Notes under the pieces: generated by a model
Told to the model about the DNA's origin: nothing
Databases searched by the model: none
What the model saw: the letters and a program-made list of their open reading frames with translations, nothing else
Virus record (IMG/VR): IMGVR_UViG_2541047121_000027
DNA: 12,870 nucleotides
Direction: 5' to 3' (one strand)
From: a virus
Taxonomy: Duplodnaviria > Heunggongvirae > Uroviricota > Caudoviricetes
Translations under genes and position numbers: made by a program
Part shown: positions 1-1,602 of the stretch, piece after piece
How positions within the stretch are numbered: the stretch's first letter is position 1
How the letters are laid out: every line of letters begins with the position of its first letter

Positions 1-60
1 CAGTTCACTGCATACCGGTCCGACCCCGTACTGCTCACGCAGCTTATCCAGCAGCGGCAT
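1..60 (-). CDS. IS3-family transposase OrfB, 5' fragment only (runs off window)
   Basis: Minus-strand ATG overlapping the OrfA stop (TAATG) opens a frame reading [20 protein letters not shown]..., which resembles the N-terminus of IS3-family OrfB. An A-rich slippery run (AAAAAAT) sits at the orfA/orfB junction. Confidence 0.5.
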   Translation of the reverse strand, partial: MPLLDKLREQYGVGPVCSEL

Positions 61-386
61 TATTTTTTCCAGAGGCGGTCGAACTCCGCCTTCGCAAAAT
101 AAGCGGAAGCCTGGCGAAGGATATCGTTACTGCGGCGCAGTTCACGATTTTCACGTTCCAGCTCTTTCAGACGCTGACGTTCAGCGGTGGTGAGTCCACC
201 ATCACCACTCCCGGTATCCCGCTCATGCTGACGAACCCACACACGCAGAGTCTCTGGTGTACAGCCAATCTTTGGGGCAATGGAACAAATTGCCGCCCAT
301 TGTGAGTCATATTCGCCCTGACTTTCCAGAACCATACGAACTGCCCGTTGACGGACCTCGGGGGAAAAACGAGTATTTTTAGTCAT
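60..386 (-). CDS. IS3-family transposase OrfA (IS629/IS1203-type, 108 aa)
   Basis: Translation [57 protein letters not shown]...[36 protein letters not shown] has an HTH followed by a leucine-zipper-like region. Recalled as near-identical to IS629/IS1203 OrfA. Confidence 0.85.
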
Positions 387-441
387 CCTGTTTACCTCTT
401 TCTCAGGGAGTTTAGTCTCCAGGATTTCCGGGGCGGTTCAA

Positions 442-1602
442 ACAGCCTTTCTTAATGACGGTGGAAACCTGAGCGTCAGGCATTCAACCAGTGGCCTTTT
501 AACCTGGTATTTCACTTACAGGGCCGGAACGGGAAGGGGGGCACCACCGGAACGCATTAAGCTGGGAAATTATCCTGATCTGAGCCTGAAATCAGCCAGG
601 GAAAAAGCCGCCCAGTGTCGCGCATGGCTGGCAGAGGGGAAAAATCCACGTCATGAGCTTAATTACACCGTACAGGAAGCGTTAAAGCCGGTAACGGTTG
701 GCGATGCGCTCACCTACTGGCTTGAGTCGTACGCAAAGGAAAACCGCGTGGATTATGCCGCCCTGAAAAAGCGCCTTAATAATCACGTAATACAGCACAT
801 TGGTGCTATGCCGCTGGATAAATGCGAGCTACGGCACTGGCTGGCCTGTTTTGACCAGGTGGCAAAGCGAACGCCTGTTACTGCCGGATTCTTGCTACAG
901 ACGTGCAAACAGGCGCTTAAGTTCTGCCGGAGGCGGCGCTATGCAATCAGCAACGTTCTTGATGATATGAGTGTGGCGGACGTTGGGAAAAAACCGGATA
1001 TAAGCGAGCGTGTCTTAAGCACCAAAGAACTGGGCGAATTATTGCAGGCACTGGACAAAAAAATATTCTCCCCCTACTACATCGCGTTAATCCGCCTCCT
1101 GATTGTGTTCGGATGCCGGACGGTAGAACTGAGGTTATCGGAGATCAGCGAGTGGGATTTTACCGAAATGCTCTGGACCGTTCCGAAGGAGCACAGCAAA
1201 ACGAAGGTAGCCATATTCCGGCCTATACCGGAAGCAATACTGCCGTTCATCACGCAGCTGGTGGAGCAGAACAGGCACACGGGCTTATTGCTGGGGGAAG
1301 TGAAACAGGAGGCCAGCGTATCGCAGTATGGAAGATTAGCGCACAGGAGGCTTAATCACCCTCACTGGTCACTGCATGACATCCGGCGCACCTTTACAAC
1401 CATGCTGAACGATTTAGGCGTTGATCCGCATGTCGTGGAGCAGCTTACAGGCCACCAGATGCCAGGAATGCAGCGAGTTTATAATCATTCCCGTTATCTG
1501 GATGCGAAACGCAATGCGCTGGATATGTGGACGGAGCGGTTAGGGATACTGGCGGGAACACATGAAAACGTAACCACGCTACCAGTAGCCAGAAGAAAAT
1601 AA
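442..1602 (+). pseudogene. int: P4-type tyrosine integrase, 5' end removed by the IS insertion
   Basis: The frame is open from 442 directly at the IS terminus: ...LNDGGNLSVRHSTSGLLTWYFTYRAGTGRGAPPERIKLGNYPDLSLKSAREKAAQCRAWLAEGKNP..., matching the P4-integrase N-terminal arm-binding pattern (DGGGL...W.FRY...LG.YP..SL..AR). Catalytic motifs are present (GCRTVEL, LHDIRRTF, RVYNHSRY). The first ~12-15 codons and the start codon are missing; the first in-frame ATG is at 748. Confidence 0.85.

Follow-up and report, generated by a model that had tools for sequence, protein, structure and literature searches.

Analysis of a 12,870-nt stretch of DNA catalogued as a Caudoviricetes virus (IMG/VR record IMGVR_UViG_2541047121_000027; hereafter the window) indicates that one IS629 insertion split the integrase gene (int) of a phage satellite, leaving an island that is most likely immobile and a lesion that is potentially reversible, a reading to which we give a probability of roughly 85%. 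According to this account, a single transposition of an IS629-type element into int at codon 23/24 duplicated the trinucleotide AAC; the target, a PICI-like phage satellite of ~10.7 kb, occupies the interval from roxA to phoQ. Promoter, ribosome-binding site, ATG, and codons 1–23 of the native gene remain by attL on the roxA side, 1.3 kb from the remnant, and codons 24–409 now adjoin the orfA end of the element, the transposase of which is transcribed the opposite way. Because the remnant has no promoter-like site, Shine-Dalgarno sequence, or canonical start before Val126, and because the conserved start of its arm domain is gone, the integrase is most likely non-functional and the island stuck, unable to excise or re-integrate by itself. 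Clonal inheritance has carried the lesion through an O157:H7 sublineage that is associated with cattle (tir-255 A, clade 7), and its reversal would be possible through transposase- and IEE-dependent excision of IS629. The features on which this reading depends are as follows:

1–440, minus strand: left (IRL/orfA) 440 nt of an IS629-type element of the IS3 family, cut by the window edge at position 440 of the 1310 of the element.
1–105, minus strand: ALIL pseudoknot RF01497 (Rfam, 94 bits; gathering cutoff 50), its 3′ end cut by the window start.
386–60, minus strand: orfA of the element (108 aa), the HTH N-terminal part of the transposase, from the ORF list and Pfam HTH_Tnp_1 (E = 1.4e-12).
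388–441, plus strand: IS-derived in-frame extension of the integrase ORF, from the PGAP coding sequence that starts at CTG 388 (404-aa hybrid WP_115448036.1).
441–443, no strand assigned: AAC, right-hand copy of the 3-bp target-site duplication, from IS-bearing versus IS-free sequence.
442–1602, plus strand: integrase remnant, codons 24–409 and stop of a 409-aa P4/SXT-type tyrosine recombinase, from 100% identity to intact alleles, Pfam, and motifs.
748–750, plus strand: first canonical in-frame start, a GTG corresponding to Val126 of the intact protein, from a start-codon scan.

The window opens inside the insertion element, whose terminal inverted repeat (...GGGGCGGTTCA) finishes at position 440. 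In genomes sharing the junction, the full element as read from IS-bearing loci is 1310 bp long, and TGAACCGCCCCGG opens both of its termini (full copy at 11131–12440 of locus L001). Over positions 1–1310 it is 98.9% identical to an element of phage BP-4795 that is annotated ‘OrfA/OrfB protein of IS629’, and it shares 97.5% identity with copies in O157 Stx2a phages; its identity as IS629 was judged against these phage copies. Within orfA, 14 SNPs private to this copy are clustered (IS positions 84–254). In the window, orfA is intact and its transcription points away from the integrase remnant. ALIL pseudoknots stimulate the −1 frameshift of IS3-family elements. PGAP annotates the same pseudoknot in the IS-bearing loci of strains FRIK944 and CV261, along with a ‘programmed frameshift’ transposase on both IS copies, uninterrupted on that of FRIK944; orfB lies outside the window. 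The length of ~1310 bp, the terminal repeats, the high identity, the frameshifted orfA/orfB arrangement with its pseudoknot, and the 3-bp duplication together place the element in IS629.

The anatomy of the junction was established from the IS-bearing genomes of FRIK944 and CV261 (loci L001 and L005) in comparison with three IS-free loci (L002, L003, and L011). The intact site reads ...CCCAAAAAACAGCC..., versus ...CCCAAAAAAC[IS]AACAGCC... in IS-bearing sequence; in longer context, ...ACACCCGCCCAAAAAACAGCCTTTC... is intact and ...GCCCAAAAAAC[1310-bp IS]AACAGCCTTTC... bears the junction. AAC flanks the element on both sides in L001 and occurs as a single copy in L002. Beyond the element, the loci of FRIK944 and CV261 run from attL through the arm-type repeats and the first 69 nt of int to a second AAC, and both halves of the split site are visible in three more IS-bearing genomes. 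PGAP labels the 5′ fragment of int in FRIK944 and CV261 a ‘hypothetical protein’ truncated at its C-terminus; its DNA would translate to a 36-aa peptide. What happened was a simple insertion that duplicated 3 bp, and in related genomes the gene is split rather than trimmed or deleted.

A first-pass annotation, made from the letters of the window alone, had placed an IS629-type element between the integrase body and its start codon. That arrangement is real, with coordinates that were off by 1–2 nt. Reading leftward in IS-bearing relatives, the check it had proposed, recovered the other IS end, the 3-bp AAC duplication, the int 5′ fragment, and attL, and comparison with IS-free islands returned an uninterrupted 409-aa int with a single AAC. 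Its statement that the 5′ end had been removed is misleading: codons 1–23 are absent from the window, but in related genomes the 69 nt are intact across the element.

Among 5426 complete E. coli genomes the same junction was found 56 times, always at 100% identity over 200 nt, and a chance origin can be set aside because it recurs identically. An uninterrupted site was found in 1046 genomes, Sakai Sp7 among them. Cattle isolates numbered 113–150, nearly identical to one another, account for about two dozen of the 56, the remaining junction genomes with a country on record come from the USA and France, and strain names suggest a wider spread that includes New Zealand and Korea. PMC10758439 lists eleven junction strains as tir-255 A; the seven of them, all from USMARC, that were looked up in its supplement are tir-255 A, Manning clade 7, and stx2c. 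Four other A-allele strains of that study, EX262, SSTX313-1, SSTX754-1, and TX376-2, fall outside the 56, and T-allele strains such as 155, F8492, F7349, and 2009C-3554 have an intact site. By these comparisons the insertion marks a sublineage within a cattle-biased clade, and the use as a lineage marker that the first-pass annotation had foreseen is upheld by both the genome count and the alleles of all seven strains looked up. IS629 sites are established for typing (PMC10758439, PMC3271280). Compared over 12,431 nt outside the element with the island of PV15-279, which has no IS, the window shows seven SNPs and a single 1-nt indel, and the int remnant is unchanged. So few differences and a remnant without further lesions do not bear out the proposal that the insertion was a step of domestication.

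Downstream of the junction, the integrase frame is in register from position 442, where codon 24 (ACA) encodes Thr, as far as the stop codon at 1600–1602, and positions 442–1700 are identical (100%) to many E. coli genomes that carry an uninterrupted 409-aa gene (WP_000085256.1) directly downstream of roxA. The 23 codons absent from the window (MSRALNKLSDTQLRKINGTPAQK) replace the 12–15 of the earlier estimate, whereas the assignment of the sequence as integrase is confirmed by this identity and by three Pfam domains. In the intact allele these are Arm-DNA-bind_3 at residues 8–95 (65 bits), Phage_integrase at 214–375 (61 bits), and Phage_int_M at 124–199, whose 22.3 bits lie under the Pfam cutoff of 27. 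The catalytic residues GCR249, H335DIR338, H361, and RVY370 (intact numbering) are all present; the catalytic Lys was left out of the motif assignment, as it gave no confident call. The arm-binding (DUF4102), core-binding, and catalytic domains, together with the Arg, His-x-x-Arg, His, and Tyr nucleophile, are those of a P4/SXT-type integrase. The HPI integrase, whose P4-like arm-binding domain has been solved (PDB 3JTZ/3RMP), has the same three-domain architecture, and 3JTZ aligns to residues 8–95 of the island integrase, the arm domain, in a weak sequence relationship (E = 9e-4). What the remnant does not have is a complete ORF with its own start and expression signals, and of the Arm-DNA-bind_3 profile it keeps positions 17–79 only, with 1–16 of 83 lost.

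The open reading frame does not start at the junction, because it stays open into the element. The frame is indeed in register from 442, as had been noted, but the element ends at 440 and the frame runs 31 codons further into it, back to a TGA at 349–351. Between this stop and 748 there is no in-frame ATG, GTG, or TTG. The codon at 748, which had been put forward as an internal Met start, is the GTG of Val126, and the earliest in-frame ATG is at 808 (Met146); the accompanying expectation that a product from 748 would have no arm-binding domain holds, as the whole domain would be missing. No promoter-like (sigma-70-like) site, outward or hybrid, and no terminator was found near the junction on either strand of positions 1–900. 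A credible alternative start for the remnant was sought and rejected: up to GTG 748 there are only near-cognate codons without usable Shine-Dalgarno pairing.

PGAP nevertheless annotates a protein across the junction, and it is possible to suppose that this hybrid ORF is expressed from a non-canonical start within the element (CTG 388 or ATT 424), yielding an active, possibly altered integrase in which up to 18 residues encoded by the element stand in for the 23 native ones, and hence a mobile island. The frame is open from 352 across the junction, and the annotated product, WP_115448036.1 (‘tyrosine-type recombinase/integrase’, 388–1602), is not flagged as a pseudogene. The 404-aa hybrid keeps most of the arm domain and every catalytic residue assigned, which speaks against the main account, and it may have residual integrase activity. 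The remnant is, moreover, free of further lesions in 56 genomes from several countries, although this lack of decay fits a recent insertion equally well, given only seven SNPs per 12.4 kb relative to IS-free islands. Against expression, the IS-derived extension offers none of the three canonical start codons; the CTG at 388 lies within the IS terminal repeat region and has essentially no Shine-Dalgarno pairing (−2.5 kcal/mol); and the GGGAG before ATT 424 ends ~13 nt upstream of it, a poor spacing. The end of the element that faces int is the orfA end, with the transposase promoter directed the other way, and positions 1–900 contain no promoter-like site on either strand. The lost segment is the start of the arm-domain model and is partly conserved (KLSDT-LRK) in a paralogous integrase described below. 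Arm-binding domains are regarded as essential to the mobility function of mobile-element integrases (PMC8138268). We consider an active hybrid unlikely and WP_115448036.1 probably an annotation artefact.

A separate possibility concerns the genome from which the window itself came, in which recombination with another IS629 copy might have deleted or inverted the flank, so that attL and the 5′ fragment of int would no longer be adjacent; this is what the first-pass annotation, taken literally, had claimed. What lies to the left of the window can be described only through its relatives, because the sequence starts inside the element and because this copy of the element carries three SNPs, at window positions 7, 55, and 61 (IS positions 434, 386, and 380), that occur in none of the 56 junction-bearing genomes. 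The three are matched exactly (100%) by other IS629 copies in O157, O145, O111, and O26 genomes, and a chimeric element is the footprint expected from recombination between two IS copies. One of them turns the TGA stop of orfA into TAA and, where orfB overlaps, replaces Met with Ile. Yet all three fall within 61 nt of the window start, where a path switch at the end of a short-read contig or short-patch gene conversion fits equally well, and any of these sources could be the cause. The remainder of the window differs by a single SNP from CV261, its best complete-genome match (four differing positions in all), and the left junction with its int 5′ fragment is retained in the FRIK944 and CV261 loci, as are both site halves in the three further genomes. 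A rearranged flank is accordingly held to be improbable, and by comparison with these relatives the window would derive from the same simple split of int by IS629.

The island around the split gene was delimited and characterised from the remaining sequence. The features used were:

1967–2155, plus strand: AlpA-type excisionase/regulator, intact, from a match to PHROG 2790 (E = 2.5e-17; ‘excisionase and transcriptional regulator’) and an HTH-regulator annotation.
11304–11327, plus strand: tandem 12-mers GGTGTAGTTAAT and GGTGTAGTCAAT, candidate arm-type integrase-binding sites beside attR, from sequence comparison.
11402–11411, plus strand: attR core GGACATATTT, the right island boundary, overlapping the phoQ stop codon, from the K-12 empty site and attL of IS-free genomes.

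Comparison with the K-12 empty site shows the core at both island ends. Between them, PHROG and PGAP assignments give the integrase, the AlpA-type excisionase, an Icd-like protein, a RepA-type primase/helicase, SSB, and a PerC-type regulator, and on the packaging side a lambda-E-like major head protein, a lambda-D-like decoration protein, a small scaffold-like ORF of 137 aa, and terS. Neither tail nor lysis genes were found in the island by these assignments. With an integrase at one end, AlpA, a primase, packaging genes, an att site of its own, and no tail or lysis genes, the island looks like a phage satellite of the PICI type. Capsid-forming PICIs are defined by a complete capsid-protease-portal-connector-HNH-terS-terL module (10.1101/2022.09.08.507074); assignment of the island to that group was considered and rejected, since portal, protease, HNH, and TerL are absent, and no ORF of portal or TerL size is present at 8750–11410. 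A 76-nt inverted repeat, 91% complementary (9554–9629 and 10419–10494), brackets the small-terminase gene at 9730–10272; it could delimit a cassette or serve in regulation or packaging. The 314-aa ORF at 2213–3157 is Icd-like at its C-terminus only, and PGAP splits it into an ‘incomplete’ Icd-like pseudogene and a 65-aa Icd-like gene. Because IS-free islands show the same split, this lesion or annotation problem is older than the IS insertion.

The closest reference element, Sp7 of strain Sakai, occupies the same roxA/phoQ att site and encodes an integrase that is 99.5% identical (two amino acid differences); ssb and perC/pch are also found in both. An identification of the island with SpLE2 was rejected, as SpLE2 lies at ~2.74 Mb in Sakai (cobU/yeeB) and the roxA/phoQ element there is Sp7. 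At the DNA level, Sp7 and the window island are 98.2% identical across int-alpA, 94.5% across ssb-perC, and 100% at the right end. Sp7, in contrast, is 15.5 kb long, with an intact integrase, a DUF927-type primase, and a complete capsid-protease-portal-adaptor-terS-terL module, a gene set that matches the capsid-forming PICIs typified by EcCIEDL933, whereas the window island measures ~10.7 kb once the IS is subtracted, encodes a helicase/primase of the RepA type, and has only head, decoration, scaffold-like ORF, and terS. The two elements are mosaics whose replication and packaging modules have been exchanged. An IS-free element of 10,436 bp at roxA/phoQ, with no Sakai counterpart, was described in a UK outbreak study (PMC8190617).

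A second satellite, at tqsA in the IS-bearing strain TB21-1, has an Sp7-like gene set and an identical AlpA protein, and the divergence of its integrase (L010, 6083–7312) is concentrated in the first 60 residues. This paralogue is 92% identical to the window integrase overall, with 97% in the catalytic, 92% in the core-binding, and 80% in the arm domain. The repeats differ as well. IS-free genomes have tandem 12-mers GGTGTAGTTAAT shortly before the int ATG, in a part that is outside the window, and the similar pair near attR; the repeats of the TB21-1 paralogue are two copies of GGTGTAGTCACT, versus GGTGTAGTTAAT of the window island. Arm domain and repeats thus covary between the paralogues, and the repeats look like arm-type sites to which the integrase is presumed to bind.

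On these grounds we infer, in line with the immobilisation that the first-pass annotation had proposed, that the integrase is null or severely hypomorphic and that the island has no excision of its own. A second copy of this integrase was not found, at megablast sensitivity, in most IS-bearing genomes. At least one IS-bearing genome, that of TB21-1, encodes the tqsA paralogue, which might partly complement the loss of int, although its arm specificity appears different. Restoration of int by excision of the element is plausible. Transposase-dependent excision of IS629 is promoted by IEE (PMC9943667), and the IS-bearing strain FRIK944 encodes, besides the uninterrupted transposase, an intact IEE that is identical to Sakai ECs_1305 at 786 of 786 residues. 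The SpLE1-type island that carries iee in FRIK944 also holds a Mu-like prophage in ureC (chromosome 1,464,490–1,502,356), which is unrelated to the int split. A bolder proposal is that IS629 and IEE act as a reversible lock on the satellite in clade-7 O157:H7, or that an IS-fused integrase is made with altered behaviour at arm sites; we regard this as very doubtful. Were the lock real, the island would be held in the chromosome with its PerC-type regulator and capsid genes kept, and precise excision of the element would restore a perfect integrase.

For practical purposes, presence or absence of the junction (~341–540) cleanly marks an O157:H7 sublineage that is cattle-associated and dispersed worldwide. 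The record WP_115448036.1 has an N-terminus derived from the element, for which pseudogene status is probably more apt, and in studies of PICI transfer the roxA/phoQ satellite of these strains should not be presumed mobile. No published description of this exact insertion was found in the searchable literature, and the junction is present in 56 annotated RefSeq genomes. It is an ordinary IS629 insertion, of a kind already sequenced and annotated, rather than novel biology, and it raises no new biological question: the splitting of mobile-element genes by the 1.31-kb element, its use in typing, and its reversal by IEE are all well documented (PMC5359411, PMC10758439, PMC3271280, PMC9943667). 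The disruption of other prophage and island genes in O157:H7, for example the stx2 genes or the excisionase gene flanking the Stx2c prophage of strain 9000, involves the same element family and has the same outcome. Unlike those documented cases, this insertion hit the integrase gene of a small phage satellite at roxA/phoQ and interrupted it at codon 23/24.
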